Shown one piece after another: positions 1 to 16,784 of a stretch of DNA of 17,057 nt (positions are counted from its first letter, which is position 1; the number at the start of each line of letters is the position of its first letter). A model generated the notes under the pieces. The model was not told where the DNA came from, searched no databases, and saw only the letters and a list, made by a program, of their open reading frames with translations. The position numbers were made by a program, and so were the translations under genes. The stretch comes from an uncultured Thermococci archaeon (GTDB lineage: Archaea; CAYQAE01; CAYVLA01): contig CAZJVP010000043.1 of assembly GCA_964549615.1 (NCBI GenBank), positions 1 to 17,057 of the forward strand, in the 5' to 3' direction.

Positions 1-1
1 G

Positions 2-1213
2 GGCAGGTCTGTGCTGGAGGGCAAGATGCCGAACATCGGTTTCCCGACCCACTACAATCAGTATTTCCCCTTCCTCCTCGCCATCCCCGTGGCGCTTGCA
101 AACAATCCTTACTCGATAGTGGCATTCTTCATGGCGTTCGATATCATGGTCGGGCTTGGCGTCTGGAGCTTGGCTAGCAAGATCGCCGAGAACCTCCCGC
201 CGAGCTCAATTCCAGAAGACCTTCCCAAGACATCGGTGATGCTCTATATCCTTTGTCCAGCCTCCTTCTACGTCACGATATACTGGAACCAGCAGGAGGT
301 CGTCACGGCCTTCCTGCTGCTCCTGGTCGTGTATGCGTACCTTGCCTGGGAGCGCCGTCCCGACAGGCTTCTAGTCGCGGTTCCGCTAGTGATGGCAGGG
401 GCATTCGTTCTTAGCTATCTTCTGGTCTGCATAGGGCTCTTCGCGGTCTTGACTCTGTTCTATGACGCGGAGCTTAAGCGCAAGCTGATCGTCAGATCGG
501 GTGCAGCAATACTTGCTCTGTACATGCCCTTCCTCCTCCTCGGTGTTGATTTCAAGCCGGTGCTTGAGGAGTTCGGGTACGGCGCGATAGGTAACAACCC
601 CTTTGCCATCCTGGAGACGTTCTCTCTGAGTGCGGGCCCATTGCCCTACGTGCTCCTGGTTGTAGCTTTCGCGTTGGTGTACTTCGCGGTCACTATCGGG
701 AGACGAGGTTACGAGAGCTCCGGACTGACGGCCATATCCATCGTCTTGCTGGCCTACCTCCTGTTCATGACGCTTTCACGGAAATCGGTCAGTTTCTATG
801 TTCTGGTCTTCTTGCCGTTTCTTGCGGTCTTCGTGGCTGCGAACCAGAAGCTTGGCGACCTGTACCTGATCTACGGGCTGGCGAACTCGTTTGCGAGCCA
901 CTTTGGCGATAGGCCAAACATAAACGCACTTGCCCGCCTCCTGCCGGTCGAACCTGACGCAGCGATGGCGATCGTCCTTGCCTTCATGGTTGCCTTCATT
1001 CTCATGGTTGTGGCGATCCAATTGGCGTTCATACGCGAGCTAATCCGCCCCTACCGGAGTGCCCTCTTCCGGCTGAGGCTGTCAGGAGTCCTGCGCTTCT
1101 ACGCAGATCAGTTGAGGTCTTTGTTCCGGCGCTGCGGCACACCCGCCCGCTCGGAGGATGGCAAGAACGGATCGGCCTTTGATTCACAATGGCTTTTCAG
1201 AAAAAGGAACTAG
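2..1213 (+). CDS. Multi-pass membrane protein, probable GT-C fold glycosyltransferase (GT87/PIG-M-like); probably 5'-truncated by the window edge
   Basis: The frame is open to the window edge (ggc agg tct gtg...). It has about 10 hydrophobic segments. The loop VLEGKMPNIGFPTHYNQYFPF resembles the GT-C 'G..PY..F...Y.P' loop, and WNQQE resembles the GT87 'WGQxD/E' motif. It lies next to aglB genes. Confidence 0.55.
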   Translation, partial: GRSVLEGKMPNIGFPTHYNQYFPFLLAIPVALANNPYSIVAFFMAFDIMVGLGVWSLASKIAENLPPSSIPEDLPKTSVMLYILCPASFYVTIYWNQQEVVTAFLLLLVVYAYLAWERRPDRLLVAVPLVMAGAFVLSYLLVCIGLFAVLTLFYDAELKRKLIVRSGAAILALYMPFLLLGVDFKPVLEEFGYGAIGNNPFAILETFSLSAGPLPYVLLVVAFALVYFAVTIGRRGYESSGLTAISIVLLAYLLFMTLSRKSVSFYVLVFLPFLAVFVAANQKLGDLYLIYGLANSFASHFGDRPNINALARLLPVEPDAAMAIVLAFMVAFILMVVAIQLAFIRELIRPYRSALFRLRLSGVLRFYADQLRSLFRRCGTPARSEDGKNGSAFDSQWLFRKRN

Positions 1214-1255
1214 AGGATCCTTCTTGTTTCCGCCGGGAGCGCGAAGGCACATGTC

Positions 1256-3226
1256 CTACGGGCTGTGTCCATAGTTCACCTTGTAGATTTTGACGTTCGT
1301 GTCGCCGTAGGCACCCGAGGAATACGACTGGTGTATCAGCTCGAAGTTCTTCTTCTCGGGGTCCGGTTGGATGAACAAGAGCTTGTAGATCGTCGTGTTC
1401 CGGCCTTTTGGGGTCAGATCGGACCATGATATCCCTGTGGCGTTCACGTTCAGCTTGTAGTAGCCGTCGGGGTAGTCGGTGATGTTGCCCACTATCTGGG
1501 CAAAGGCGCCGACCAGCCAGAAGTCATGCTCCGGCACGATCACGTACTCCACCTGATATCTTCGGAAGATGTCTATCGCGACATCCTCGGGGGACAGGTA
1601 CGCTAGCGCGGTGCTCTGTATCGCCTGGAAGTCGGTGGTCGCCCCGTCGGTGACGCATCTCCTCTTCGCGACGGAGGTGATCCAGTGCCCGTAGTCCCAC
1701 CATGAGAGCAGTATAGAGTCCTGTGGGGTTTCCCTGTTGAGCCAGATGAGCGCGTCGTACCAGCCCTGGCCCATGTGGATCCCCCTCCCTTGGACGAGTT
1801 CCAACCCGGTGAGAATCGAGGGCGTGAGCAAGAGCAGAAGCGAGAGCGCAGCGAGCGGGCCTCCGATCCTTGCTAGCCTGAGCTCCTTCCGGACCTCCTG
1901 CTTCACGTTCCGAGATCTGGATTGGGCGAGGATGCTCAGAGATCGCTGCCTTGAGGCCATTTCCATGAACTCCCAGATCGCGATCGCGCTGAGGACGCAG
2001 AGGGCTGGGGTCAGGAGCATGGTGCTCCTTATTGCAGACAGGCCCGCGTAGAACCCTGAGCCTGCCCAGAGCACGAGGAAGACGTCCTCCAGGCGCCTCC
2101 TGTACAGGGAGAAACCAACCCCGATGATGGCGAGGAAGGGGTAGAAACTGTACCTTGAAAGCCAGTCGCCGAGCGTCGGCTTTGCATACTCTTGGACGGT
2201 GATGTGCATGCCGACTTGGGGGCTCTTGAAGGCGTTCATGAGGATGAGGAACTTCTGGGCCACCTTGAATTGTACAAGTCCCAGGGCCGGCCCATAGACG
2301 GGGAAGAGGCCCGCGCCGAGGCCAAGGAGCACGAATACGATGATCGCCGTCCTCCTAGTGAGGAGATGCATCCGAACTGCCTCCTTGACCAAGGCCTGGT
2401 AGCCGGCAAGCGCAACTACCGAGAGGATATGGATCAGCACGAACGGGTTGCTGAGCCGCCAGTTGGGTATGCTCGCCGAGATCCCAAGCATGGATAGGCT
2501 CATCGCGATCAGCCCGACGGCGGTCGAATCCGAAAGCCTCAAGATCCCTAGGAGCTCAAGAACGATGACCACGGCATAGAACAGGGAAAGGAACAGCAGA
2601 AGGTACGTGTATCCGCCCCAGGTCAGAGCCACCAGTCCGAAGAAGAGCCCGGCACATAGACCCTCAAGCGTCGCCGTCATCAGGGCCGGCCCTCCAAGCA
2701 GCCTTACCGCGAGGGCGAAGCCCGCCAGCATGAGGGGGAATGCAAGACATTCCTTGTCTGCAACTCCGCCCATAGTTCTGTTCAAGAACTCTGGGATGGT
2801 GGCTATCAAGAGGGCCGAGATGAGGCCGGTCCTGACGTTCCTCAAAGTCTTGCCGATGAAGTAGACGGGTATGACGACGAACGACCCGACGATCGCAGGA
2901 AACAGCACGGTCCACGACTCGAGCGTGATCCTGGATCCCGCGAGGCGCAGGAACGAGTAGGTGTACGCGATTGCAAACGGCAGCAGGGGCATCTCCAAGT
3001 CAAGGGATCTTCCGTTGGGCTGCCAGCCCATGTTGTCCCAAACGGGGTAGTAGCCTTTCTCCACGATGTTTTCTGCCATTCGGAACATGAAGTAGGCATC
3101 CGGATCCATGATGGTGCCGAACCTAGTTGGCACCATCCTGACGCTCATGGCGAGGAAGAGGATCAACAGGATCGCTATGGTCGGCCAGTTCTGTGCCAGA
3201 TCGGATGGCAGGCGAAGCGAACTCGT
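1256..3226 (-). CDS. aglB: Oligosaccharyltransferase AglB/STT3, paralog 1 (start uncertain: ACG at 3226 or TTG at 3166)
   Basis: WWDYG at 1688-1702, DPD in the first loop, RTMGGVADKE, TVQE (TIXE motif) and DGATT. Many TM helices are followed by a soluble C-terminal domain. The frame extends upstream of 3166 through the first TM helix to an in-frame ACG preceded by GAGGTGA. Confidence 0.93.
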   Translation of the reverse strand, partial: TSSLRLPSDLAQNWPTIAILLILFLAMSVRMVPTRFGTIMDPDAYFMFRMAENIVEKGYYPVWDNMGWQPNGRSLDLEMPLLPFAIAYTYSFLRLAGSRITLESWTVLFPAIVGSFVVIPVYFIGKTLRNVRTGLISALLIATIPEFLNRTMGGVADKECLAFPLMLAGFALAVRLLGGPALMTATLEGLCAGLFFGLVALTWGGYTYLLLFLSLFYAVVIVLELLGILRLSDSTAVGLIAMSLSMLGISASIPNWRLSNPFVLIHILSVVALAGYQALVKEAVRMHLLTRRTAIIVFVLLGLGAGLFPVYGPALGLVQFKVAQKFLILMNAFKSPQVGMHITVQEYAKPTLGDWLSRYSFYPFLAIIGVGFSLYRRRLEDVFLVLWAGSGFYAGLSAIRSTMLLTPALCVLSAIAIWEFMEMASRQRSLSILAQSRSRNVKQEVRKELRLARIGGPLAALSLLLLLTPSILTGLELVQGRGIHMGQGWYDALIWLNRETPQDSILLSWWDYGHWITSVAKRRCVTDGATTDFQAIQSTALAYLSPEDVAIDIFRRYQVEYVIVPEHDFWLVGAFAQIVGNITDYPDGYYKLNVNATGISWSDLTPKGRNTTIYKLLFIQPDPEKKNFELIHQSYSSGAYGDTNVKIYKVNYGHSP

Positions 3227-3264
3227 CCGTTCACCTCGAAGCTAGCCCCAGCGGCCAAAGTTTG

Positions 3265-3274
3265 AAATATATAT
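3265..3274 (-). promoter_or_regulatory. Putative TATA box for aglB paralog 1
   Basis: ATATATATTT on the minus strand is the main AT-rich patch in the GC-rich divergent intergenic region. It lies about 28 nt upstream of the GAGGTGA SD at 3231-3237. Confidence 0.6.
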
Positions 3275-3382
3275 CCCAAGCGGCTTGGCCGGGGGGAAGA
3301 GCGCTCTGCTGCAGGCTGCAGGGGTACAAGTAATAAGCCCGGCCGTTTTCCCTCGCGCGCGAGTTTCAAGGTTGGAGCGAGC

Positions 3383-5527
3383 ATGTTGACGGACTTTTTC
3401 AGGAAGAGGCGTCTGCTCATGTTGCAGGTCGGCGCCCTCGTTCTGCTCTACGCAGCGGGCGCCTACCTTCGACTGGCGCCCCTTCCGACCTGGGGCGTGT
3501 ATGTGACAGCAGACGACCCTGTCCTGCACGTGCGGGTGACCGAGTACGTGCTTGAGCACGGACACCTCCCGCGAAACGATACCCTGGCCTGGTATCCGTG
3601 GGGGCAGAACTGGGAGAGGACCCTTCCAAATTTTCGGTACTACCTGACCGCTTTCCTCTTCTCCATCGGCCGCTCGCTGGGGATGAGGCTTTCGCTTTAC
3701 GATTTCTGCGTGATCTTCCCTGCCTTCTTCGCGCCCTTGGCCGTCGTGCCCATGTTCCTCCTGGTCAGGCTGCTGAGGGATTGGAAGTCCGGGCTCGTTT
3801 CGGCCGGGGTGTTGGTGCTTTCGAACGGCTATCTTTCAAGGACGATAGCCGGATTCTACCGTCACGAGCAGGTCGGCATCCCGCTGCTCGTCCTATGCAT
3901 GTACTTCTTCGTAAAGAGCATGAGGTCGGAAACGCTGCGCGACACGCTGGCCTATTCGGTTGCGTCGGGCACTAGCCTTGTTCTGCTAACGGGTACCTGG
4001 TCGGGGTTCAGGTTCCTCTTGGACGGCTTTCCGGTCCTGGTGTTCTTTGCCCTCCTCGTCGGCAGGATGGGTCGCAGGCTGCTCATCGCCTTCCTGGTGA
4101 CCGACGGGATGGCCCTTGCCTCGACCTTCTTCTGGCCCAACCTAAGTTCATACTTCTTCAAGACCTTCGAGTTCTCCGTTGTCGTTGTCGTTATGATCAC
4201 GGCGCTTGCATACGAGTTCGCGCTGAAGAAGCACGTCGATGCTGAGAGGCTACCGCTCGCCACGGCCGGCCTGGCGGCCGTCGTTTTCCTGCTTATGCTC
4301 GCCACCATCAGCGGCTTGCCCGTCGGACGGCTCGAGGTCGTGATCAACCCACTTAGAACCCCGCCTGCGGGCGACGTCTCGCAGACGGTTGCCGAGCATG
4401 CCGCAATGCGGCTGAGCTTCGTGGGAGGAAAGATGGACTGGCCGGCCATGAGCTCCTATGGCTGGTTCCTATTCGTGGTTCCCCTGGGCATGGTCTTGCC
4501 CTTCCTGAAGCGGGAGGATAGCAATCTCGTCGTCCTGTCGATGCTGGTCTTCACCTGCTTCCTGCTATTCCTCGCGCTGGATCCCTACCCGGCTCTCGTG
4601 TGTTACGCGATTGTCCTTCTTGCGATGGCTGGTCTCTGGTTCCTCTGTCCGCCGGCAGATCGCCCCAAGAATGAGGAGGTGATGATGATCCTCTTTGCCC
4701 TGCTTTCCGCCTACTTCTTCAAGAATATGATAAGGCTGAACATCCTATTCTCCGTCTTTGTCGGGGTCCAGTCGGGCCTCTTCTTCGGCACGGCCCTTGA
4801 CATGGCGTCGCTTCACATGCGGGATCAGACGGCGCGGCGGGCGTCGGATTCTCGGTCAAGGAAACGCAAGGAGAGGAAAAGGAGGCAGCGGGCTATGGAA
4901 GGCAGGGCCGAGCCGGAGGCGGCTAGAGCCGGCGTCAACTACCTTCAGGTGGCGATGGCCGGGTTCTTCGTGATCCTGCTCGTCTTCACGATGTCCACTT
5001 CATACAAGTCCGCGAAGGCTTACCCCCTGGGCCTGCGGGAGGACTGGTTCCAGGCGCTGGACTGGATAGAGGAGAACTCGGAGCCGGACGATGTGATCAT
5101 GTCTTGGTGGGACTATGGCTACTGGATACAGACCTACGCCGGACGTCCGACCATCGCCGACGGTGCCACGACCAACAGCAGCCAGATAAGGAGGCTGGCA
5201 AGGGCGTTCATGACGACGGAGAAGGAGGCATACCAGTTCTGCAAGGAGTTCAACGTGAGATACGTGGTGGTGGATGTGACGGACGACTTCTACCCCGGGG
5301 CCAAGTGGACCGCGATGGCCGTGATAGCCGAGCAGAGGATCGCGGACTACATGGGGACCGGGCAGGACGGTAAGCCGGTCATCTACGACAAGGGATCGAA
5401 ATGCCTGCTGTTTCGGCTTGCTTCGCGGGTGGCGCTCTCGCAGCCCCTTGCCCTGGAGCATTTCGAGTTCCGGCAGGTTTTCCAGAGTTCGCGGGGCCAG
5501 GTCATAGTATACGAGTTTAAGCCTTGA
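3383..5527 (+). CDS. aglB: Oligosaccharyltransferase AglB/STT3, paralog 2
   Basis: WWDYG at 5105-5119, TADDP, RTIAGFYRHE, TVAEH, DGATTNSS and DK-like DD....AKWTAM. The N-terminal region is polytopic. The ATG is preceded by GGAG. Confidence 0.95.
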   Translation: MLTDFFRKRRLLMLQVGALVLLYAAGAYLRLAPLPTWGVYVTADDPVLHVRVTEYVLEHGHLPRNDTLAWYPWGQNWERTLPNFRYYLTAFLFSIGRSLGMRLSLYDFCVIFPAFFAPLAVVPMFLLVRLLRDWKSGLVSAGVLVLSNGYLSRTIAGFYRHEQVGIPLLVLCMYFFVKSMRSETLRDTLAYSVASGTSLVLLTGTWSGFRFLLDGFPVLVFFALLVGRMGRRLLIAFLVTDGMALASTFFWPNLSSYFFKTFEFSVVVVVMITALAYEFALKKHVDAERLPLATAGLAAVVFLLMLATISGLPVGRLEVVINPLRTPPAGDVSQTVAEHAAMRLSFVGGKMDWPAMSSYGWFLFVVPLGMVLPFLKREDSNLVVLSMLVFTCFLLFLALDPYPALVCYAIVLLAMAGLWFLCPPADRPKNEEVMMILFALLSAYFFKNMIRLNILFSVFVGVQSGLFFGTALDMASLHMRDQTARRASDSRSRKRKERKRRQRAMEGRAEPEAARAGVNYLQVAMAGFFVILLVFTMSTSYKSAKAYPLGLREDWFQALDWIEENSEPDDVIMSWWDYGYWIQTYAGRPTIADGATTNSSQIRRLARAFMTTEKEAYQFCKEFNVRYVVVDVTDDFYPGAKWTAMAVIAEQRIADYMGTGQDGKPVIYDKGSKCLLFRLASRVALSQPLALEHFEFRQVFQSSRGQVIVYEFKP

Positions 5528-5602
5528 TCGGTCCATGGGGGGACGCTGAGGAGCTGTGCGTCGGTCCTATCCGAGAAAGAAAAGGGAGGTGAAGCCTGCC
5601 TT

Positions 5603-6187
5603 TTAGTCAAGCAGCTTCACCGTCAGGGTCCGGTTCTCGAGGGATACGGGATTCTCGTTCGTGTAGGCGTAGTAGAGTCTTATGTCGTAGGTGCTCTCGT
5701 TCACGCCTGTCGGCAGCTGGGGACACATTATGGTCACCCTTATCGCCCTCTCGCCCTTGAGCGTGGTGAACCTCCACTGGAATCGGCCCTCCCGTTCGGT
5801 CCATGTCTCGTTGGCCTCCGTGAAGTCAACCTCGCCCAGCTCTAGCAGTATGGACACCCCTTTCGCTGTTCCCTTCTTGGGCTTGAAGACCAGCTCGATG
5901 TCTTCCTTCTTCACCTGGTACGACGTCCACTCGCTCCGATTGCCGATCGGCTTGTACTCGTCAGGGTATTCCTTGACCCAAATCATGTGGCCCTCGAGCG
6001 GAGGTTGGTTCAGCCATCTCGAGATCCAGTTGGTCTTCGTGAATATGCCCCACGCCGCGATCAACAGCAGTATTATCGCCACGACGAGGATTCCGAGACG
6101 TATCTTTCTCCTAGTCGGGGACTCCACGTACCTTACGGCCTCCTCCTTTCCCGGTTCCTTCTTCTCCTCTGGTGGTGCTTCAGCCAA
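5603..6187 (-). CDS. Single-pass membrane-anchored hypothetical protein (194 aa), likely surface glycoprotein
   Basis: TTG start with AGGAGGT SD 6 nt upstream. A basic stretch (RRKIR) precedes one TM helix and a beta-rich domain. Four N-X-S/T sequons are present. Confidence 0.8.
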   Translation of the reverse strand: MAEAPPEEKKEPGKEEAVRYVESPTRRKIRLGILVVAIILLLIAAWGIFTKTNWISRWLNQPPLEGHMIWVKEYPDEYKPIGNRSEWTSYQVKKEDIELVFKPKKGTAKGVSILLELGEVDFTEANETWTEREGRFQWRFTTLKGERAIRVTIMCPQLPTGVNESTYDIRLYYAYTNENPVSLENRTLTVKLLD

Positions 6188-6199
6188 TCATAGACCTCC

Positions 6200-6385
6200 T
6201 CAGGAAATCCTCTTTCTCAGCCCGATTATGCAAAGGATCAGTCCTCCGAAGAGCAATAGGAACATCAGGAGCAGCCCGACGTCGGCCGCGGCGGTTGGGT
6301 TAAACATCGTGCCCATGCCTAGCACGGCGCCGATGCACATCAGCCCTATTCCTCCAAGGAAGAACGGTCCGCCTTTTCGGGCCAT
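6200..6385 (-). CDS. Small two-TM membrane protein (61 aa, MARKGGPFFLGG...)
   Basis: ATG at 6385 with AGGAG SD (6391-6395) and a TATA box at 6432-6438. It has two Gly-rich hydrophobic helices, and its stop abuts the SD of the next gene. Confidence 0.75.
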   Translation of the reverse strand: MARKGGPFFLGGIGLMCIGAVLGMGTMFNPTAAADVGLLLMFLLLFGGLILCIIGLRKRIS

Positions 6386-6431
6386 GAGAACTCCTACCCG
6401 GAGAGACCTTTCCCAGAGGAAGCCAATTGCC

Positions 6432-6438
6432 TTATAAA
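6432..6438 (-). promoter_or_regulatory. TATA box (TTTATAA) for the two-gene membrane-protein operon
   Basis: Consensus archaeal TATA about 47 nt upstream of ATG 6385, leaving room for a short leader with an SD. Confidence 0.65.
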
Positions 6439-6536
6439 GGTTATTGTGCGGTTCCGGGGCTGCGGCGGCAGTAACAACCAATCCGTTGGCCCGATAGACC
6501 AACCAACCATATCCATGCCTGACCAACAGGGCATTC

Positions 6537-6545
6537 GAAGAAAAA
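6537..6545 (-). terminator. Oligo-T terminator after tRNA-Trp
   Basis: TTTTTCTTC begins 3 nt after the discriminator base. Confidence 0.5.
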
Positions 6546-6547
6546 TG

Positions 6548-6718
6548 TGGGGCCACAGGGATTTCCGTTCCGTCTTGATGACGGGATTTCGAACCCTGGT
6601 CGGTGGGTTTCTTCTTACCCTCCGTCGCTCATCGGCAGTTGCCTCGCCGCTCCGGAGTCTTTGACTGGAGCCCACTATGATTCCGGGTCAAATCCTTACC
6701 GGACTACACCATGGCCCC
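6548..6718 (-). tRNA. trnW: tRNA-Trp(CCA) with three introns: 21/22 (6696-6681, 16 nt), 37/38 (6664-6609, 56 nt) and 59/60 (6587-6562, 26 nt); 3' CCA not encoded
   Basis: Acceptor stem GGGGCCA/TGGCCCC pairs 7/7. D stem GTGT/TCAT. Anticodon stem GTGGG/CCCAC with loop CT-CCA-G/A (anticodon at 6668-6666). T stem CAGGG/CCCTG with loop TTCGAA/T. Discriminator A at 6548. BHB-type motifs occur at the junctions. Confidence 0.93.
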
Positions 6719-6743
6719 TGTACTTCGTGGCCGGTCAAGATCG

Positions 6744-6758
6744 ATAAAAATCTTTCCG
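6744..6758 (-). promoter_or_regulatory. BRE + TATA promoter of tRNA-Trp
   Basis: Minus strand CGGAAAGA-TTTTTAT, ending 26 nt upstream of tRNA G1. Confidence 0.75.
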
Positions 6759-6811
6759 GATCTTATGGTAGGATTCCACGGCCGCCTGGCCTGACCGAAA
6801 GCCGCGGCCGG

Positions 6812-8017
6812 CTACTGGAGGATTTTCGATCTAGGCGCGATGACCGTGTTCGGATCAAGCATCATCCCCGCGCTAACGAAGGCGCCTTCCCCAATGACCA
6901 CGCCGTCGCCCAGTACGGCTCCCAATCTTTTCCGGCCGGAGTCGAGCCACCTGTCCTTTATCCTAACGCGAACGCCGCGAGCGCGCGCATCGCGGTCAGC
7001 CAGAGTCGCCCCAGCACCAACGACGCTGTTCGGACCAAGGACGGAATAGCCGACCGTCGCCCCCTGTTCGATCCGGCATCCTTCCATGAGAACGCATCCC
7101 TCAACCCTTGCCCCCTTGATCTTTGATCCGTCCCCAACCGAGCAGTACGGTCCGACGACCGCCCGCCCTGCTATTGAGCACTCCCTGCCGATGATGCTTG
7201 GCCCGATGATCCTTGCGCGGCCCGCCACCAAGCTGCCCTCCCCGATTCGCACGGCTGAGCTGAGTTGGGTCCCCCTGAAGGTTCGCCCCACGTTTCGGCG
7301 AAGGAACAACTCGTTTAGGCCGATGACATCCCATGGCTTTCCAAGCTCGTGCCACTCCCTCACGCGATGGCAACGCACACGCATCCCAGCGTCGATCATG
7401 GACTGAAGGGTGTCCGTGATCTCGATCTCTTTTCTCTTCGGGTTGGGCGGGGTCCTGTCGATCCAGTCGAAGACGTCCGCATGAAAAACATAGACGCCGA
7501 CGTTTGCAAGGTCCGACGGCGGGTTCTCCACCTTCTCCGCCACCTTAATCACGAATCCTCTCCTGGTCAAGAAGACGCCGTACTCCCAGGGGTTCGGCAC
7601 GCGCTTGGCCGCAACGCTCATGCCTGGTGAAGAGGCCATCTTTTGCAGGCTCGCACCGTCGAGCAGGACGTCCCCGTTCAACGCGATGAAGGGGCCGGAC
7701 ACAGCGTCCTTGGCCGCGCGGATGGCATCCGCCGTTCCTCTCGGCTCCTTCTGGTGACATATGATCAGCTCCATTCCATTCGGCGCGTTGTGGACCAGCC
7801 AGTCCTCAAGCACGTCCTTCCTGTACCCGGCGACGATGGCGGCCCTCCTTATCCCGATATCCATCAAGAGGTCGAGCTGGTGGCCCAGAAAGGCGCGGTT
7901 TGCCACCGGTATCAGGACCTTGGGGCGGGAATAGGTCAGGGGCCTAAGCCTCGTTCCCTCCCCGGCCGCGAGGATTACGGCTTGATCCACCCTTTCGGCG
8001 GGCATGCCATCGCTCAC
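6812..8017 (-). CDS. glmU: Sugar-1-phosphate nucleotidylyltransferase with left-handed beta-helix domain (archaeal GlmU-like)
   Basis: LAAGEGTRLRPLT..RPK nucleotidyltransferase signature, Q.EPRGTADA, LNGD and EK motifs, hexapeptide repeats, and a C-terminal SGRKRLGAVLGD typical of archaeal GlmU. The start is GTG 8017 or ATG 8005. Confidence 0.8.
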   Translation of the reverse strand: MSDGMPAERVDQAVILAAGEGTRLRPLTYSRPKVLIPVANRAFLGHQLDLLMDIGIRRAAIVAGYRKDVLEDWLVHNAPNGMELIICHQKEPRGTADAIRAAKDAVSGPFIALNGDVLLDGASLQKMASSPGMSVAAKRVPNPWEYGVFLTRRGFVIKVAEKVENPPSDLANVGVYVFHADVFDWIDRTPPNPKRKEIEITDTLQSMIDAGMRVRCHRVREWHELGKPWDVIGLNELFLRRNVGRTFRGTQLSSAVRIGEGSLVAGRARIIGPSIIGRECSIAGRAVVGPYCSVGDGSKIKGARVEGCVLMEGCRIEQGATVGYSVLGPNSVVGAGATLADRDARARGVRVRIKDRWLDSGRKRLGAVLGDGVVIGEGAFVSAGMMLDPNTVIAPRSKILQ

Positions 8018-8048
8018 AGTTTTAACCCAAACTTTTCAAATATCTTCC
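8018..8048. promoter_or_regulatory. 31-bp bidirectional promoter region between glmU and rtcA
   Basis: AT-rich spacer. TTTTAA (8020-8025, +) lies about 24 nt before GTG 8049, and TATTTGAA (8042-8035, -) lies upstream of glmU. Confidence 0.55.
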
Positions 8049-9113
8049 GTGAGCTCGGAGAGCAAGCCTGTCCTGATCGATGGCCGCTACGGCGAGGGCG
8101 GGGGAAGCATAGTCAGGGTGGCCGTCGGTCTGTCAGCCGTCACCGGACGGCCCGTCTCGATCAGCAACATAAGGGAGAACCGCCCCCGGCCCGGGCTTGC
8201 TCCCCAGCACCTCACCGGGCTTAAGGCCCTGGCAAGGCTCTGCAACGCACGCACAGAGGGGTTGGCTCTGGGATCCACCTCGATCAAGTTCGTGCCGCGC
8301 AAGCCCAACCTGGCCGAGCTGTCGGTGGATGCCGGAACCGCAGGAAGCATCGGCCTCATGCTTCAAAGCCTCATGATCGCCCTGCCCTTCGCCGGTCGGG
8401 AGGTGAGGCTATCGCTGACGGGGGGCACTCACGTCCCTTGGGCACCCAACATCGATTACCTCAGCAACGTCACTATCCCTGTGTTGCGGATGATGGGGTA
8501 CTCGTGCGACGTCACCATGATTAGCCCGGGCTACTATCCGAAGGGCGGCGGCAGGGTCCTTTTCCAGTCCCGGCCCTGCCAATGCCTCTCAGCCCTGAAG
8601 ATGGATCGATTCGGCGATCTTGTGGCGGTGGAGGGCGTCTCGAGGGCATCGAATCTGCCGGAGCACGTGGCCGCTCGTCAGTCCCGCGCCGCGGCCGAGG
8701 CGCTTCGGGGGGTGGCGGATCCGAAGATCGAGGTTTCGGCGCAGCGGTCCGCTTCCCCTGGCAGCGCGATCACTCTCTGGGCGTCAACAACGACAGGCTG
8801 CCGGTTGGGCGCATCCGCCCTTGGCGAGAGGGGTAAGCCGGCGGAGGCAGTTGGTCGAGAGGCCGGCGAGGAGATGCGGCTCTACGTCGAGGGCCGCGCT
8901 CCAGTTGATCCCCACCTCCTTGATCAGATCCTCCCGTACTGTGCGCTGGCCCGCGGCGTCTCGGTTCTAAGGGGATACAAACTTACGATGCACACAACGA
9001 CGAACGTGCACGTGGTAAAACTTTTTCTTGACAGCCGGATAGAAGTCGAGGGGGAGGTGGGCGAGGCTTGCACGATAACCATAGAAGGCGTCGGGATGAC
9101 AGGAGAGGGTTAG
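8049..9113 (+). CDS. rtcA: RNA 3'-terminal phosphate cyclase
   Basis: IDGRYGEGGG.IVR, RPRPGLAPQH, GYYPKGGG, VDPHLLDQ (adenylated His motif) and HTTTN. Start moved to GTG 8049 because the track start at 8004 would overlap glmU head-to-head. Confidence 0.95.
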   Translation: MSSESKPVLIDGRYGEGGGSIVRVAVGLSAVTGRPVSISNIRENRPRPGLAPQHLTGLKALARLCNARTEGLALGSTSIKFVPRKPNLAELSVDAGTAGSIGLMLQSLMIALPFAGREVRLSLTGGTHVPWAPNIDYLSNVTIPVLRMMGYSCDVTMISPGYYPKGGGRVLFQSRPCQCLSALKMDRFGDLVAVEGVSRASNLPEHVAARQSRAAAEALRGVADPKIEVSAQRSASPGSAITLWASTTTGCRLGASALGERGKPAEAVGREAGEEMRLYVEGRAPVDPHLLDQILPYCALARGVSVLRGYKLTMHTTTNVHVVKLFLDSRIEVEGEVGEACTITIEGVGMTGEG

Positions 9114-9536
9114 TTGGCTAGGATTTGCATATTGATAGGAAGCAAGTCGGATGAGAAGGTTGCCGAGGGCGCCACCAAGGTGCTTGACGAGATGGGCCTG
9201 GATTACGAGATCCACGTCGCCTCGGCGCACCGGGAGCCGGAGAAGGTCGCTCGGATAGTCGCATCCACCGATGCGGATGTCTTCATAGGGATTGCCGGGC
9301 TTGCGGCTCACCTGCCGGGCTTTGTGGCGAGCAGGACGACCAAGCCGGTCATCGGGGTTCCCGTCTCTGCCAAGCTCGGGGGAATCGACGCGCTGCTCTC
9401 GATCGCCCAGATGCCGAAGGGCGTCCCGGTGGCGACGGTGGGCATCGACAGGGGCGACAATGCCGCTCTCTTGGCGGCGAGGATACTTTCGGTAGCGGAT
9501 CGGCGGATCGCGGAAAAGCTTCGCGTCGGAGGCTAG
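9114..9536 (+). CDS. purE: N5-CAIR mutase / AIR carboxylase PurE
   Basis: [24 protein letters not shown] and [11 protein letters not shown]. The TTG start directly follows the rtcA stop. Confidence 0.95.
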
Positions 9537-9544
9537 CGGAAGAT

Positions 9545-10174
9545 TTGTCGGAGTGGATTCGGAAGAGAAGGCGGGATCAGTTCTACAGGAGGGCCAAGGC
9601 GGATGGCTACAGGTCGAGAGCGTCCTACAAGCTCCTTCAGCTCCAGCGGAGATACGCCATATTCCGGAGGGGGGACAGGGTCCTGGACATCGGTTCCTCT
9701 CCGGGAGGCTGGTCGCAGGTGGCAAGACAGCTCGTTGGGAGGCAGGGGCTGGTCGTTGGGGTGGACCTCGCCGAGACCTCGAGCCTGGGCTTTGACAACG
9801 TCATCTTCATCCGGGGTGACATCTTGGACGCTTCCACGGAACGGCTCATAGCCTCGGTCTCAAGCCAGTACGATGTGATCGTGTCAGATGCCTCGCCGAC
9901 GATCTCCGGGATATGGACTAGGGACCATCTCCTATCCGTCGACCTTGCAAGGAGGGCCCTTTCGCTTTGCAGGTCCCTGCTGAAGAAGGGGGGGACCTTG
10001 GTTGTCAAGGTGTTCCAGGGCGAGGAACTCGATACCCTGCAGGAGGAGGCGAAGGCGTGGTTCGGCTCGGTGAAACGGGCCAAGCCCGAGGCGTCGAGGG
10101 GCGAAAGCTCCGAGATATACCTCGTCTGCAAGGGGTACCTTGGCGCCGGATCAAAGAAGGCCGACGGATCGTAG
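9545..10174 (+). CDS. rlmE: 23S rRNA 2'-O-ribose methyltransferase RlmE/FtsJ
   Basis: GYRSRASYKL, LDIGSSPGGWSQV, SDASP, KVFQG and KPEASR.ESSEIY (K-D-K-E tetrad pattern). Confidence 0.95.
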   Translation: MSEWIRKRRRDQFYRRAKADGYRSRASYKLLQLQRRYAIFRRGDRVLDIGSSPGGWSQVARQLVGRQGLVVGVDLAETSSLGFDNVIFIRGDILDASTERLIASVSSQYDVIVSDASPTISGIWTRDHLLSVDLARRALSLCRSLLKKGGTLVVKVFQGEELDTLQEEAKAWFGSVKRAKPEASRGESSEIYLVCKGYLGAGSKKADGS

Positions 10175-11074
10175 AAGCTGGCAGGCCTTACACTCGCCAC
10201 CGACGGTGGGCTCGCCGCACCTGGAGCACTCAACGAGCCTCCCACCGGCATAGAGACGCGCGAACTGGGCGCTCAGCCGGTCCACGGTGGATAGGAAAGA
10301 GCTCTTGCTGGTCGGCCGGTCCTCCTCCACTTGGTTTAGGAAACTTCTGACCTGATTGCGGAAGTCGAACCCGGCATAGGGGCATGACCCCAGATGGACG
10401 TCGAGGCGGTTGAAGATGTCGTAGAGCAGCGTCTCCTTCCCCGGGATGCCGCGCAACGGCTTTACCCTCGGCACCAGCTTCTCGTGGGAAAGGATGTAGT
10501 TGGGCCCTGACCTCGCAAGCCTCGCCGGGTCTCCGCGGATCAGGTTCAGGAGTGCGGACTCCGCCTCATCGTCTAGGTTGTGCCCGGTGATCAGCCTGTC
10601 CGCGCCAAGATCCCTCGCATGCCTGTTCAGAATCCAGCGCCTGAGCACGCCGCAGTACGTGCAGGCCCGCTTGGGCGAGCCAAGCCGGTCTACGATCGAA
10701 TCAAGGTCCGCCCCGAACTCCCGCTTGAATGACGCGGTGTGGAACTCAAGGTCGCTTGCCCTTGCCGCCTTCCTTGCCCGCTTTATGCCTTCCTCCCTGT
10801 ACCCGCGTATTCCCTCATCGACGGTGAGCACGGCCATCTGCGTTCGTCTCACCCTGCCCAGCGGAGCCACGATGTCCAGGCATGCAACGCTGTCCTTGCC
10901 CCCCGATACCGCGAAGATGGCAAAGCGGCTGTCCGAGATCATCCTGTTCCTGCCCACGTCTCTCCACACCCGCCTTCTGAGGCTCTTCGTGAAGCACCTG
11001 CCGCAGAACTTGGCGCCGGAGTGGCGTTGCAGGTACCTCGCCTTGCTGGTGCAGAAGTCGCAGCGAATCGCCAC
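10151..11074 (-). CDS. ncsA: tRNA 2-thiolation enzyme, NcsA/TtuA/Ctu1 family
   Basis: N-terminal CxxC..CxxC, PP-loop SGGKDS, CTYC, GHNLDDEAE, CPY and C-terminal CxxC..CxxC. Confidence 0.9.
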   Translation of the reverse strand: MAIRCDFCTSKARYLQRHSGAKFCGRCFTKSLRRRVWRDVGRNRMISDSRFAIFAVSGGKDSVACLDIVAPLGRVRRTQMAVLTVDEGIRGYREEGIKRARKAARASDLEFHTASFKREFGADLDSIVDRLGSPKRACTYCGVLRRWILNRHARDLGADRLITGHNLDDEAESALLNLIRGDPARLARSGPNYILSHEKLVPRVKPLRGIPGKETLLYDIFNRLDVHLGSCPYAGFDFRNQVRSFLNQVEEDRPTSKSSFLSTVDRLSAQFARLYAGGRLVECSRCGEPTVGGECKACQLLRSVGLL

Positions 11075-11078
11075 GCTC

Positions 11079-11303
11079 TCATCCCCCAGAGAAGACTTTG
11101 ATCAGGCTGATCCGATCGTTCTCCTTCAGCGGCTCGAACTCCGCCACAACCATTCCCCTTCTCACTGCTATGAACTCCTCGCTCAGTAGGCCCATCCTTC
11201 TCAGCAGGTCGCTGACCTGGCAGCCACGCCCAACGCGGAACCTCCGGGGTCCCCGGCCACCCTTTACCTCAACCCACACGGTGATCTTCTCGGACCTTGA
11301 CAT
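11079..11303 (-). CDS. Ubiquitin-like sulfur carrier (MoaD/ThiS/SAMP/TtuB type), 74 aa
   Basis: Ends in LKENDRISLIKVFSGG-stop (C-terminal diglycine). ATG 11303 has GGGGGTGG upstream, and the gene ends 4 nt before ncsA. Confidence 0.88.
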   Translation of the reverse strand: MSRSEKITVWVEVKGGRGPRRFRVGRGCQVSDLLRRMGLLSEEFIAVRRGMVVAEFEPLKENDRISLIKVFSGG

Positions 11304-12168
11304 CTTCCACCCCCCGGTTTGTGGGCACGGTGGTCCCCGCCGGCGTCGCAAGAACCGATCTTGCCTCCTCGATCCACGTGGTGCGGAAGCCTGCTTGGCT
11401 CAGCCTTCTGGATACGCCTCTCCGAAGGTCAAGCCTTCTGTAGCGGGATCCGGGCTGACCAGTGTAGTGCAGGAGGAGGCCGTCATCCGCGACTATGCGT
11501 CTGAGTTCGGTGTAGAAGGTTAGCGAGTAAAGTTCCCCGGCAAGGGAGAAGGTTGGAGGATCGTGCATTATCCTGTCGAACCATCCCGTGGGAAGGACTC
11601 GGATGAACCGCGCGGCATCGCACAGGACGGGCCGTATCCTGCCTTGGGCTGCAAGGCGGAAGAATTCAAAGCTGCATGGGTTCTCCCTTGCAAGCTTCAG
11701 GACGGCCTCGTTTCTTTCCAGGGTGATCACCGCGGCTCCCCTCCTTGCTGCGGCTTGGGCGGTGTAGCCAAGGCCGGTGCAGATATCCAGCATCCTCTGT
11801 CCGGGCCTAAGCCCCAAACACCGCACCTTGAGCTCGGCCTCTTCCTCGGGCAGCATGCCTTGGGTTCGGTGCATCCTGATCCCGTCGATCTCAAGAGCCG
11901 GGAAGCCCGGGGTCGGCACCAGCTTGTAGAGGCGACCGTTGAAGATCTGCAGCGGCTCTAGCCTGCCTTTCCGCACACGGTACAGGACGCTATCGCTCTT
12001 GGCGCGCTCGAGCTCGCTTCTCTGCACGAGCTGTGAACCGATTTGCACGGTCTTCCCATCCACCGCTATGATATGCTTTCCGTACGAGAGCCCAACCTCC
12101 CACCGCCCTCGTCTGAGTGCGAGAATCCTCTGCGAGTCGTGAGCAGTTAGCACGACGGGTTTTTTCAT
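11269..12168 (-). CDS. Class I SAM-dependent methyltransferase of unknown substrate (COG2521-like archaeal family)
   Basis: LDICTGLGYTA (motif I), LERN, IMHDPP.FSLAGELYS and PALEIDGIRMHRT. ATG 12168 overlaps the thiDN stop (ATGA), so the longer track ORF start at 12516 is rejected. Confidence 0.8.
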   Translation of the reverse strand: MKKPVVLTAHDSQRILALRRGRWEVGLSYGKHIIAVDGKTVQIGSQLVQRSELERAKSDSVLYRVRKGRLEPLQIFNGRLYKLVPTPGFPALEIDGIRMHRTQGMLPEEEAELKVRCLGLRPGQRMLDICTGLGYTAQAAARRGAAVITLERNEAVLKLARENPCSFEFFRLAAQGRIRPVLCDAARFIRVLPTGWFDRIMHDPPTFSLAGELYSLTFYTELRRIVADDGLLLHYTGQPGSRYRRLDLRRGVSRRLSQAGFRTTWIEEARSVLATPAGTTVPTNRGVEDVKVREDHRVG

Positions 12169-13649
12169 CTCAGAGCGCCCGCGATCATTTGCGCCTTCCG
12201 TGCGACCTCGGTTGGCGTTGATCCCAGAATCCTCATCATGGGTTCCTTGCCAACCGAGCCTAAGTCGTAGAGGAGGTCGGGAGGTCGGGGAAGGCTTCTC
12301 AACACGTGCCTGACCGCCCAAGCCATCGTCTTCTCGCCTTCTGGTTCCAGCTCCCTCTCGAACTTCGCCACGGACAGGCCGAGCTCGTTGCAGGCGGCGA
12401 GGATTGGCTCGGCATATTTTATGTTCATGCAGCACCCGAGGTTCCCCGTGAGCTGGCGTAGGGCTAGAGCCATCCTTGCCATGTGGGCTGATCCGCCCCG
12501 GCACGGCCACCCGCACGCTCTGGCTCTCTCCCCGATCCTGATGATGCGGCCCGAGAGGCCAATGACGTCCTCAACGGCGCAGGCCGTCGATGGGGCCATC
12601 GCGATGTTGATTCCAACCTGGGGCACCAACCTGTAGAAGCCCGGTGTGGCCTCCAGCTCGGCAACGACCCTGGACAGCTCCTCGCAGATCCTCAGGGACT
12701 CGGCTTCCCGCAGTGTCGTGCCGAGCGGGTCCACAGGGCCGTTGCCAGCGCCCGACCATCGGCCGGCCCTAATTGCGGCCTCCGTGAACTTCTTGGCCTG
12801 CCGAACGGATTCCTCCAGCCCCATGCCGTTGGCGAGGTTGCAGGCTATTGATGTCGAGAAGGTGCAGCCTGACCCATGGGTTGATCGCGAATCGATCTTC
12901 GTCCCTGCGATCGCGACCGAGTTCTCGGCCGTGACCAGGATGTCCGTGAAAGGTTCATCCCGAAGATGGCCGCCCTTCACCACGACGGATTTGGGGCCAA
13001 GCTTGAGGATCCTGCGTGCCGCTTCCTCGGACTGCCTCGGATTTCGGATCTTCGTGCCCGACAGCGCCTCCGCCTCGGGCACGTTGGGCGTCAGGACCGT
13101 GGCAACCCTCATCAACGGCGCAAAGACCTCCATGGGATCGTCGGCCAACAGAAGATGGCCGGTTCCGGCCCAGATGATCGGGTCGACCACGACGGGGCGG
13201 ATGGCGGCCCTCTTCAGCGACTGGGCCACCGCCCTGGATATCGCGGCGTTGCCAACGAGGCCCACCTTCGCCGCTGAGATCGGGAGATCCCCGGCGACGG
13301 CAGCAATCTGCCGCCTGACGGCGGCGGGATCGATCATAACTGACCGGCCGACCAGCCCCCTGGAGTTTTGGATGGTCACAACTGTCACACACGAGGCTCC
13401 GTGGAGGCCATGGGCTGCTATGGTCTTGAGGTCGTTCTGGATTCCCGCGCCCCCCGATGGATCGGATCCTGCAATGGTGAGGACAGCCTTACTCAATTCG
13501 CTCGGCCCCCGGTGGTACTGTAGCCCGGCAGATCTTTCGAGCAGTTCGGGTTCATGGTCTATCTGCCCCGGCACGGTTGACCTCGGGTTCCTTTTCTGTC
13601 CCGCGACCGCAAGAGACGAACGGGCAGTGCAAGCCATTCGCGCCGCCAT
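12165..13649 (-). CDS. thiD: Bifunctional HMP/HMP-P kinase ThiD fused to thiamine-phosphate synthase ThiN (start ATG 13649 or TTG 13496)
   Basis: ThiD motifs: LTIAGSDPSGGAGIQNDLKT, VVVDP, TPNVPEAE, VVKGGH, THGSGCTFS. ThiN motifs: VPQVGINIA, GRI, GGSAHMAR, NIKY, D.G..GKEPM. Confidence 0.93.
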   Translation of the reverse strand: MAARMACTARSSLAVAGQKRNPRSTVPGQIDHEPELLERSAGLQYHRGPSELSKAVLTIAGSDPSGGAGIQNDLKTIAAHGLHGASCVTVVTIQNSRGLVGRSVMIDPAAVRRQIAAVAGDLPISAAKVGLVGNAAISRAVAQSLKRAAIRPVVVDPIIWAGTGHLLLADDPMEVFAPLMRVATVLTPNVPEAEALSGTKIRNPRQSEEAARRILKLGPKSVVVKGGHLRDEPFTDILVTAENSVAIAGTKIDSRSTHGSGCTFSTSIACNLANGMGLEESVRQAKKFTEAAIRAGRWSGAGNGPVDPLGTTLREAESLRICEELSRVVAELEATPGFYRLVPQVGINIAMAPSTACAVEDVIGLSGRIIRIGERARACGWPCRGGSAHMARMALALRQLTGNLGCCMNIKYAEPILAACNELGLSVAKFERELEPEGEKTMAWAVRHVLRSLPRPPDLLYDLGSVGKEPMMRILGSTPTEVARKAQMIAGALR

Positions 13650-13675
13650 CCTAGTTGACCTCCTGCGGTTGGGTG

Positions 13676-13703
13676 GGGAACCTTTTTTAGCGAATCATAA
13701 AAA
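13676..13703. promoter_or_regulatory. Back-to-back promoters for the thiDN operon (-) and the 13714 operon (+)
   Basis: Plus strand GGGAACC-TTTTTTAG (TATA 13683-13690) lies 24 nt before ATG 13714, suggesting a leaderless mRNA. Minus strand TTTTTATG (13703-13696) lies upstream of the AGGAGGT SD at 13664-13658. Confidence 0.6.
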
Positions 13704-13713
13704 TGGCGCGACC

Positions 13714-14457
13714 ATGGAAGAGGAAATCAGGAAGATCGAGAAATACGTCAGGGTCCCTCACGTTTACGGCGTCGAGCTTTCATACTCCAAGTACGGCGTC
13801 CCACTGCCCGATCCGAGCTACGACCTATATGTGCAGCAGGAGGACAGCGGCCTGAAGCAGATGCTGGAACGCAGGGTCGTCAGACAGGCCATCGTGACGG
13901 AGGACTCAAAGCTCTTCGAAAACGCCGTGGTGGCCACCGTGGCCGACCAGGTCATAAGGGTGATGGGGCTCAGCGACCTGGTCTTGGCAATTCTGGGCCA
14001 ATCCCGCCCGCTGCCGAGGTTGGTGTGCTGCATCCCGATAGCCCTCTCGATGCACCCCGAGGCGTTGAACGTTGAATACATGGTCTCTAAGACCCGTGAC
14101 AAGAGCCTGATTCAGAAGCTGGGCTTCCTCTTCGACATTGCGGACTACCTGAACCCGGATGTGGCCGTTAAGTCCAAGCTGAGGATGCTTAGGAGGTTCT
14201 ACCCTTTTGATTCCGTCACGTGGATTCTGAGCCCGCCACCAGCAACCCCGGCAAGGCAGGAGGAGGAAAAGAGCTTCAAGAGCAAGAACCGGATACTCAC
14301 GTTTCAGAGCTTCTGGAAGGTCGAGCAGACCCCGTTGATGGAGGAGTTCGAGGGGCAGTTCAAGCTTTTCGTGCCGGAGGAGATGATGAAGTGGAGATAC
14401 GAGCCGAGGATTACGAAAAAATTCTCAGAAAGGGGTATACGGGTGAGGAGGTTGTAG
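13714..14457 (+). CDS. Hypothetical protein (247 aa) resembling the AbiEi (type IV TA antitoxin) C-terminal domain, without an N-terminal HTH
   Basis: ATG at leaderless spacing from a TATA box. Segments HVYGVELSYSKYG, IRVMGLSDLVLAIL, LIQKLGFLFD and FWKV parallel AbiEi-CTD patterns by eye. A nucleotidyltransferase-like gene follows. Confidence 0.5.
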   Translation: MEEEIRKIEKYVRVPHVYGVELSYSKYGVPLPDPSYDLYVQQEDSGLKQMLERRVVRQAIVTEDSKLFENAVVATVADQVIRVMGLSDLVLAILGQSRPLPRLVCCIPIALSMHPEALNVEYMVSKTRDKSLIQKLGFLFDIADYLNPDVAVKSKLRMLRRFYPFDSVTWILSPPPATPARQEEEKSFKSKNRILTFQSFWKVEQTPLMEEFEGQFKLFVPEEMMKWRYEPRITKKFSERGIRVRRL

Positions 14458-16392: not shown

Positions 16393-16784
16393 GAAACCAT
16401 CCTTCGTCCCCAGCAAAGCAGGGCAGGGCAGCCCTCCCACCCGGGCGCTGGGCCCTGATGCCTCATGGCCGAACGTTTCCAGAACGATGGGACGCACGGT
16501 TCACCTGCGCCTCGGCCTCCGCGGCGGCTGAAAAAGCCCATGCTTTGCCCGTTACGCGGACAGTTCTTGGCGCTCCCTGAAAAGTATTTGCTCACGCTTC
16601 AATCTATGATCGCCGGGCCATACGTCGTCCGTTCGAGGTCTAGCGGGACCAGCTCCCAAGACAGACTGGACGGTGAGCGCAGTAGCCGGTCGGGGGCTTC
16701 GTTGGGGCCTTGGTCAACCGCTTCACTGCCCTCATTCTGAACAAACAAAGCCATGGCGATATCCTAGGTATTTGCATCCCAGAG

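Follow-up and report, generated by a model that had tools for sequence, protein, structure and literature searches.

A probable three-intron tRNA-Trp(CCA) gene and two candidate splicing endonucleases in an uncultured hot-spring archaeon

Archaeal tRNA genes carrying several introns, each bounded by a bulge-helix-bulge (BHB) splice motif, are reported from Thermoproteales (Thermofilum, Pyrobaculum and Caldivirga), with up to three introns in one gene (PMC4033280, PMC8450103), and from Thaumarchaeota (PMC8450103), and in the Asgard Atabeyarchaeia and Freyarchaeia 92-95% of the tRNA genes are listed as containing introns, over half of them several (PMC11291895). A survey of splicing endonucleases (EndA) associates increased tRNA gene disruption with broad-specificity enzymes, including those of DPANN lineages and of one Hadesarchaea genome with an alpha4 EndA (PMC5829648). 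The introns can also carry functions of their own, as in euryarchaeal tRNA-Trp, where a nested box C/D RNA is described as selecting C34 and U39 for 2'-O-methylation (PMC4090602). In this work we analyse a 17,057-nucleotide (nt) stretch of DNA (contig CAZJVP010000043.1, positions 1 to 17,057 of the forward strand; assembly GCA_964549615.1), hereafter the window, from an uncultured Thermococci archaeon whose DNA occurs in hot-spring metagenomes, in which a tRNA-Trp(CCA) gene fragmented by three introns had been proposed by a sequence-only reading.

We consider this locus to be, with a probability of about 0.85, a functional tRNA-Trp(CCA) gene, apparently the only one of this hot-spring archaeon, with three BHB introns. 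It occupies the minus strand (from window position 6718 to 6548, 171 nt), at the coordinates of the sequence-only reading, to which the strand is added here. As that reading had it, removal of 16, 56 and 26 nt leaves a 73-nt cloverleaf: the exons, joined by coordinate with a script, give a product of this length with the same junctions (GGTA^TCAT, CCAG^ACCC and TCGAA^TCCC), which ARAGORN calls as tRNA-Trp(CCA) over positions 1-73. The gene adds one more case to a layout already known. It resembles the genes reported from Thermoproteales in having up to three introns, one at the canonical 37/38 site and the others with relaxed BHBs at non-canonical sites, in a genome where a large share of the tRNA genes is interrupted and a broad-specificity endonuclease co-occurs; it differs from them in lineage and in the enzymes, which are here of an epsilon type and a two-unit type, and not an (alpha-beta)2 heterotetramer. 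The intron-rich tRNA sets reported from Asgard archaea are likewise found outside the Thermoproteales, with most genes interrupted, in many cases by several introns and at non-canonical sites, but they belong to a different phylum; in the genome collection the phylum-level group that holds the present genome comprises only five species. Triple-intron tRNAs had been called rare by the sequence-only reading, with Thermofilum as the example; Thermofilum is among the known cases, but by now tRNAs with several introns have been described in Thermoproteales, Thaumarchaeota and Asgard archaea alike. Less expected are an epsilon-type EndA outside DPANN, standing beside a second, loop-bearing EndA, and a box C/D intron that appears half reduced.

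Conservation of the interrupted gene

The decisive evidence for the gene, in so far as it can be read from sequences, is comparative. A BLAST search with the 171 nt against 40 related genomes returned full-length homologues in three of them (81-86% identity, one copy per genome), one from the same genus and two from the same family, which has no further member among the 40. In the alignment the three introns fall at the same places in all four genomes, and 72 of the 73 exon positions are invariant, against 8 of 16 in intron 1, 41 of 56 in intron 2 and 10 of 26 in intron 3; the sole exon change is U to C at position 22 in one relative (G002). The flanks can hardly be aligned among the four genomes, except for an A/T-rich motif upstream of the gene, AAAGATWTTTATYGA, which by the archaeal promoter consensus is a likely promoter. 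Applied to the four sequences, RNAalifold recovered the acceptor, D and T stems together with the BHBs of both non-canonical introns, and in the inner helix of intron 3 three of the five pairs have changed on both sides and still pair, i.e. the changes are compensatory. A structure written by hand (cloverleaf, three BHBs and a kink-turn, or K-turn, in intron 2) pairs in 95.9% of the alignment cells, against 33-52% when the partners are slid by 1-3 columns, and all three of its covarying pairs sit in the intron-3 hairpin.

Additional comparisons come from outside the four genomes. In a hot-spring metagenome from another study (run X4), a 216-nt contig matches window positions 6541-6719 only and is unlike the window beyond them on both sides; all six listed differences are intronic, four in the intron-3 hairpin loop and two in intron 2. 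The similarity begins and ends only a few bases from the limits of the gene, so the gene appears conserved and its surroundings not. The DNA contigs of two other runs (X2 and X3) did not cover the gene. In two distant archaea, the spliced sequence shares 58 of 73 alignment columns with the tRNA-Trp of G013, whose D-arm and T-arm are uninterrupted and which has one 215-nt intron at 37/38, and 61 of 73 with that of G020, which has a 59-nt intron at 37/38 and a 41-nt one at 59/60, the latter with a perfect 6-bp hairpin. In G004, of the same class and the one remaining genome of the phylum-level group, a BLAST match was dismissed as a chance one in AT-rich coding DNA, and no tRNA-Trp is found among the 30 best tRNA matches. 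This genome (L042-L071) is AT-rich and has many interrupted tRNA genes; one of its tRNA matches, 144 nt long (C58:6494-6637), contains box-like motifs in its intron.

The same data bear on the possibility that the locus is a decaying pseudogene or relic, the working tRNA-Trp being either missing from the assembly or the gene on contig C79. The assembly is indeed a draft (104 contigs, 3.2 Mb), and ARAGORN labels C79:2833-2924 (minus strand) as Trp(CCA), by way of a 17-nt intron at 35/36. We rejected this candidate: a canonical 37/38 intron gives it the anticodon CCU, it nearly matches the genome's tRNA-Arg(UCU) in acceptor, D-arm, variable loop and T-arm, its discriminator is G73, and no other Arg(CCU) occurs in the ARAGORN list of the genome; by these sequence features it is a tRNA-Arg(CCU) gene. 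Two further Trp(CCA) solutions were discarded, one on C81 with a long variable arm (class II) that reads Ser(GGA), and one on C72 in coding-like sequence. No second tRNA-Trp, a point raised by the earlier reading, was found either by BLAST with the gene in this genome and its three relatives or in the ARAGORN list. With a marker-gene completeness of 99.46%, a single copy in each of the four genomes, exons that have held while flanks and intron loops diverged, compensatory changes in the hairpin and a conserved promoter motif, a pseudogene seems to us very unlikely.

The spliced product has the features of a regular tRNA. Its acceptor, anticodon and T stems (in a set of stems of 7/4/5/5 bp) are perfect, and the D-stem has three pairs and a U13.U22 mismatch, so that 20 of the 21 stem pairs are formed, with 13:22 as the exception; all 11 invariant positions are present (tested as U8, A14, G18G19, U33, G53 U54 U55 C56 R57 A58 and C61). 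The ARAGORN drawing shows the anticodon CCA together with G1-C72, G2-C71 and A73, the last three being the archaeal Trp identity set. Standard tools miss the unspliced gene, as the earlier reading had suspected: neither ARAGORN nor Rfam at its gathering thresholds reports it in the window, a search of a 500-nt region with Rfam at E-values up to 10 gave no match on its strand, and the 35 tRNAs that the Rfam tRNA model lists over the whole genome, the same number at E-value limits of 0.001 and of 10, do not include the tRNA-Trp gene.

A cloverleaf obtained by three freely chosen deletions could in principle arise by chance. ARAGORN took 923 of 3102 arbitrary two-deletion variants of the locus as full-length tRNAs, of many identities (the T-loop intron was kept fixed, and the pairs of deleted segments needed only a complementary helix of 3-4 bp), and this permissiveness makes its acceptance alone weak evidence. 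A strict score was therefore used, adding the 21 stem pairs and the 11 conserved positions (maximum 32), and applied to 299,964 two-deletion variants: 21 variants reached 32 and 322 reached 31, the top ones differing by small displacements within a single architecture and nearly always having the anticodon CCA, and the architecture of the sequence-only reading scored 31. The best scores of 20 interior shuffles were 26-30, all below those of the real sequence (31-32). Among the variants, 14 scored at least 30 with both central helices at 3/4 or better; all of these have the 37/38 intron, and only the D-loop intron originally proposed has a 4/4 helix. The sequence by itself is above chance, not overwhelmingly. 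Although shuffled interiors can reach 30 of 32, the different conservation of exons and introns, the covariation in independent genomes and the homology of the spliced product to bona fide tRNA-Trp genes leave a chance cloverleaf scarcely credible.

The splice motifs and their joint fold

We used a BHB geometry with a 4-bp helix between two 3-nt bulges and a cut after the second bulge base, the standard form, which agrees with the descriptions in PMC5829648 and PMC6379350. The details of the three motifs were as the sequence-only reading had described them, including the CCGTC/GACGG hairpin and the C34-A mismatch. In the 59/60 intron the central helix is UUCG (positions 54-57)/CGGA (4/4, with one G.U), between bulges AA^A and AA^U; the T-stem forms its outer helix, and the inner hairpin consists of a U-A pair, a C.A mismatch and then the 5 bp of CCGTC/GACGG. 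The 21/22 intron has the helix CCGG (D-loop positions 17-19)/CCGG, 4/4, with bulges UA^A and AA^U and an inner helix of 1-2 bp. The 37/38 intron pairs CUCC (32-35) with GAAG, 3/4 with the C34.A mismatch, between bulges AG^T and AA^A, the anticodon stem being its outer helix. All the bulges of the three introns have 3 nt and the motif pattern is kept in the four genomes, as is the C34.A mismatch. Helices on both flanks (as in the strict hBHBh' form) are found in intron 3 only, a near-strict motif, with the T-stem on one side and the covarying hairpin of 5-7 bp on the other; introns 1 and 2 are relaxed.

The exact junctions deserve separate consideration, since the gene could be a real tRNA-Trp in which one or more of them differ, e.g. 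with the D-loop intron shifted by 1-2 nt, or with A and not G at position 37. From the sequence alone, the product stays the same if the 21/22 junction is moved by 1 nt or the 59/60 junction by 2 nt, D-loop deletions moved by 1-2 nt give a 4-bp D-stem (32/32 against 31), and in G013 ARAGORN put the intron one position 5' of the BHB-predicted site. BHB geometry fixes both junctions at the positions originally proposed: the shifted D-loop solutions have 0-1 of the 4 central-helix pairs and only the proposed one has all four, the geometry is the same in the four genomes, including G003, where sliding would alter the product, and the D-loop AGUCCGGUA matches the usual archaeal pattern. We find different junctions unlikely, although less so than a pseudogene.

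The sequence-only reading had also supposed that ordered splicing is probably required, a supposition that we do not retain. A single nested structure accommodates the three BHBs along with the four cloverleaf stems, so that the structure imposes no order, and in the four-genome consensus fold the D-loop and T-loop BHBs form together with the acceptor, D and T stems.

Several observations weigh against a functional three-intron gene as described here. The comparison rests on four genomes and one contig, all related, and with four sequences only the covariation score was reached by 21 of 500 shuffles. The margin of the strict score over the shuffled interiors is small (31-32 against up to 30), with ARAGORN very permissive, and the shifted D-loop boundaries score 32 against 31 for those preferred, the 21/22 site being picked by BHB geometry alone. 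The D-loop intron is without a contiguous outer helix, and the 37/38 motif is weak, its central helix containing a conserved C.A and its inner helix being almost absent. Such a mismatch is evidently tolerable, since the CUCC/GAAG helix with the same C.A recurs in the tRNA-Arg(CCT) intron of this genome and in the tRNA-Trp of G013. Finally, the splicing-competent fold is not the minimum free energy (MFE) structure of the single sequence (-52.8 kcal/mol when constrained, against -69.8 kcal/mol for the MFE); protein binding and the consensus fold lessen the weight of this unfavourable energy.

The 56-nt intron as a possible C34 guide

The high conservation of intron 2 accompanies a module that resembles part of a box C/D RNA. 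Box C has the consensus RUGAUGA and box D the consensus CUGA, and together they form a K-turn; the guided target lies at the fifth nucleotide upstream of D' or D. In the 56-nt intron a D'-like box GCGA (AUGA in G003) is followed by a hairpin whose 3-bp stem pairs fully in the four genomes, and then by a 3-nt bulge after which GA forms the C'-like box, giving a GA/GA tandem. By hand count, the nucleotide opposite C34 is the fifth upstream of the D'-like box. The tRNA-Trp introns of G013 and G020 carry this module too, with boxes of consensus form (CUGA and UGAUGA/GAUGAU), and have the GGAGCG-plus-D' arrangement as well; the 215-nt intron of G013 carries approximately 150 nt of extra sequence upstream of its terminal CUGA...UGAUGA module.

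Compared with the box C/D intron of euryarchaeal tRNA-Trp, the present one is alike in the tRNA concerned, in the 37/38 site, in an internal D'-hairpin-C' K-turn, in a guide that pairs to the anticodon loop and puts C34 five nucleotides upstream of D', and in being long (56-60 nt, against a reported median of 65 nt; PMC4090602). It is unlike it in lacking recognisable terminal C and D boxes, in having C at position 39 and only a mismatched, inconsistently spaced candidate for a position-39 guide, and in a shorter C34 duplex. Three of these points weigh against guide function. By eye, no terminal box C or D was recognisable in any of the four genomes; the C34 guide duplex, of 5 bp and one isolated pair, is shorter than the 7-8 bp found in G013 and G020; and the 3' complementary stretch has an A.A mismatch opposite tRNA position 42 and a spacing to the D-like box that varies among genomes, a consistent position-39 guide having been sought by eye in the four genomes and not found. 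For these reasons we put the chance that intron 2 is still an active C34 guide at about even.

The same gaps speak for the alternative that the intron is conserved for a structural role, such as L7Ae-assisted folding or presentation of the weak BHB, or simply as a decaying remnant. This alternative, to which we give somewhat less than an even chance, sits less easily with 41 of 56 invariant positions where the other introns keep 8 of 16 and 10 of 26, with a GGAGCG-D'-hairpin-C' module shared with two distant archaea, and with the position of C34 relative to the D'-like box in a genome that encodes fibrillarin and Nop5. Between guide and scaffold, the extra conservation of the 37/38 intron may best be understood if it keeps the C'/D' K-turn and the C34 guide of a euryarchaeal box C/D RNA, and it probably directs, or once directed, 2'-O-methylation of C34.

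Splicing enzymes, tRNA set and proposed processing

The sequence-only reading held that three such introns need a broad-specificity endonuclease, and by alignment the genome has enzymes of this kind, encoded by two endA genes on contigs C90 and C88. Residues 29-403 of the 403 of the C90 protein align to residues 22-387 of the 395 of 4FZ2/9W2K (E 2e-73), the epsilon2 EndA of ARMAN-2, listed as having broad specificity (PMC6379350, Table 1; 9W2K according to PMC12397907). Counted on the alignment, Y251, H264 and K295 correspond to the catalytic Y236, H251 and K282, and K168 corresponds to K161, the lysine of the ARMAN-2 specificity loop (ASL), with the residue roles as given in PMC3488258; Pfam places N-terminal and catalytic domains mid-protein. 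By this end-to-end match the C90 protein is an epsilon-type three-unit enzyme (alphaN, alpha, betaC) in a single polypeptide. The catalytic unit of the C88 protein has its best match in the Aeropyrum pernix alpha subunit (3P1Z/3AJV, E 2e-43), and its K250 aligns to K44, the lysine of the Crenarchaea-specific loop (CSL). RtcB, fibrillarin and Nop5 are also encoded in the genome.

The resemblance to ARMAN-2 (Candidatus Micrarchaeum acidiphilum) thus includes the full-length match, the conserved catalytic triad and the ASL lysine (PMC3488258, PMC12397907), as well as likely substrates that include relaxed T-loop BHBs, ARMAN-2 having pre-tRNAs with T-loop introns (PMC3239211); the differences are a host genome of 3.2 Mb, not that of an ultrasmall DPANN archaeon, and the second, two-unit EndA with its CSL-type lysine. 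The survey of 2018 gives the epsilon2 type as known only from Micrarchaeum (ARMAN-1/2) and Mancarchaeum (PMC5829648), and in the literature searched we found no report of an epsilon-type EndA in this lineage. Among the genomes searched, the gene is full-length in all four of the family (split over two contigs in G001), was not found in G004, and occurs in two of 36 more distant archaea, both with genomes below 1 Mb.

The tRNA-Trp gene is one of several of its kind in this genome. Lengths of 88-130 nt are found for 24 of the 35 Rfam tRNA matches, which sets an upper limit on the number of interrupted genes, as some may be class II; most of the tRNA genes therefore seem interrupted. Roughly ten tRNAs of the expected set are undetected by the Rfam tRNA model. 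A scan resembling SPLITS and judged by ARAGORN -i proved too permissive, with 81 of 190 anchors giving a solution, mostly in coding DNA, and was abandoned. In the scan retained for 59/60 introns, acceptor and T-arm anchors with a T-loop BHB were sought; 41 compact ones among the 190 anchors were read by hand and then given the strict score. An anchor at window positions 6991-7162 (minus strand) was set aside, as it lies inside a nucleotidyl-transferase open reading frame (ORF) and has a single poor solution. Five real genes with a 59/60 intron resulted, tRNA-Trp and at least four others (Table 1), none of the latter in the Rfam list of 35. Only loci with a perfect acceptor stem, U8 and a T-arm that is intact or of the 59/60 type pass the scan, which is not exhaustive, so the counts are lower bounds.

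Table 1. Coordinates of the features discussed. Plain positions are those of the window; the others carry contig or locus handles. Conservation counts refer to the four genomes compared.
Feature	Position	Strand	Remarks
Whole pre-tRNA-Trp(CCA) gene	6548..6718	-	171 nt; ends at discriminator A73; CCA not encoded
Exon 1: acceptor 5' strand, U8, D-stem 5' strand, D-loop to A21	6697..6718	-	22/22 invariant
Intron 1, 16 nt, 21/22 in D-loop	6681..6696	-	Relaxed BHB; loop variable; central helix 4/4 in all four genomes
Exon 2: D-stem 3' strand, position 26, anticodon stem 5' strand, anticodon loop to G37 (CCA)	6665..6680	-	15/16 invariant
Intron 2, 56 nt, 37/38	6609..6664	-	Canonical site
Exon 3: position 38, anticodon stem 3' strand, variable loop, T-stem 5' strand, T-loop to A59	6588..6608	-	21/21 invariant
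Intron 3, 26 nt, 59/60 in T-loop	6562..6587	-	Near-strict hBHBh'; covarying hairpin
Exon 4: position 60, T-stem 3' strand, acceptor 3' strand, A73	6548..6561	-	14/14 invariant
K-turn-like hairpin in intron 2	6627..6647	-	D'-like GCGA, 3-bp stem and variable loop, C'-like AUGAG...; found by eye
Guide-like GGAGC in intron 2	6649..6653	-	Complementary to tRNA positions 31-35; pairs by RNAalifold
A/T-rich element AAAGATWTTTATYGA, likely B recognition element (BRE)/TATA promoter	6741..6755	-	Same distance in all four genomes, at about 25-40 nt upstream; ends about 22-23 nt from the mature 5' end
T-rich run immediately 3' of the gene, likely transcription terminator	6538..6545	-	Relatives' genes also end in T-runs
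tRNA-Gln(CUG)	C75:12828-12961	-	Three introns: D-loop, 37/38, 59/60; strict score 32/32
tRNA-Pro(UGG)	C51:46993-47118	-	Three introns; D-region boundaries ambiguous
tRNA-Gly(GCC)	C76:22638-22746	-	Two introns
tRNA-Pro(CGG)	C88:77580-77691	-	Two introns; D-region boundaries ambiguous
Epsilon-type EndA, 403 aa	C90:41466-42674 = L035:1195-2406	-	
Two-unit EndA, 393 aa	C88, L034:1456-2637	-	
tRNA-Trp of G013	L005:211-501		
tRNA-Trp of G020	L013:~1480-1650		

In the window, the tRNA-Trp gene occupies the gap between ORFs at 5691-6437 (plus strand) and 6812-8017 (minus strand). A gene for RtcA, the RNA 3'-terminal phosphate cyclase of RNA-end processing, lies approximately 1.3 kb away (8004-9113, plus strand), and two divergently oriented paralogues of the AglB/STT3 oligosaccharyltransferase lie next to each other (1256-3166, minus strand; 3383-5527, plus strand).

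From these features we infer the following course of processing. Transcription from the conserved A/T-rich promoter would give a precursor of approximately 171 nt with three BHB introns, in each of which the central helix would be formed by nucleotides that stay in the loops of the mature tRNA (D-loop CCGG, anticodon-loop CUCC and T-loop UUCG) paired to the 3' end of the intron, which places each splice site after the second base of a 3-nt bulge. The three motifs may form together, with no fixed order of splicing, and the six sites would be cut by the epsilon-type (ARMAN-2-like) endonuclease and the two-unit one with its Crenarchaea-type loop. RtcB would then join the four exons into the 73-nt tRNA, to which CCA would be added later.

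A more far-reaching scenario is speculative, and we hold it to be improbable as a whole: the lineage would run two broad-specificity EndAs side by side, the epsilon type being either transferred or ancient; this dual system would have let D-loop and 59/60 introns spread in a burst, at least three tRNAs acquiring triple introns; and the tRNA-Trp intron would be a minimal, single-K-turn cis guide for C34, in which only the C'/D' half of a box C/D RNA is left. Whatever its origin, an intron-rich tRNA set of this kind has a practical consequence, because with the apparently sole tRNA-Trp and at least four other tRNA genes invisible to ARAGORN and Rfam, surveys of this lineage would wrongly report missing tRNAs. 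An intron-rich tRNA set in a barely sampled archaeal lineage, alongside an ARMAN-2-type epsilon EndA outside DPANN and a second EndA with a specificity loop, offers a natural experiment on whether the specificity of the endonuclease evolves in step with the disruption of tRNA genes, and the tRNA-Trp intron, with an internal K-turn and a C34 guide left to it, is a candidate for learning how little of a box C/D RNA may still work.

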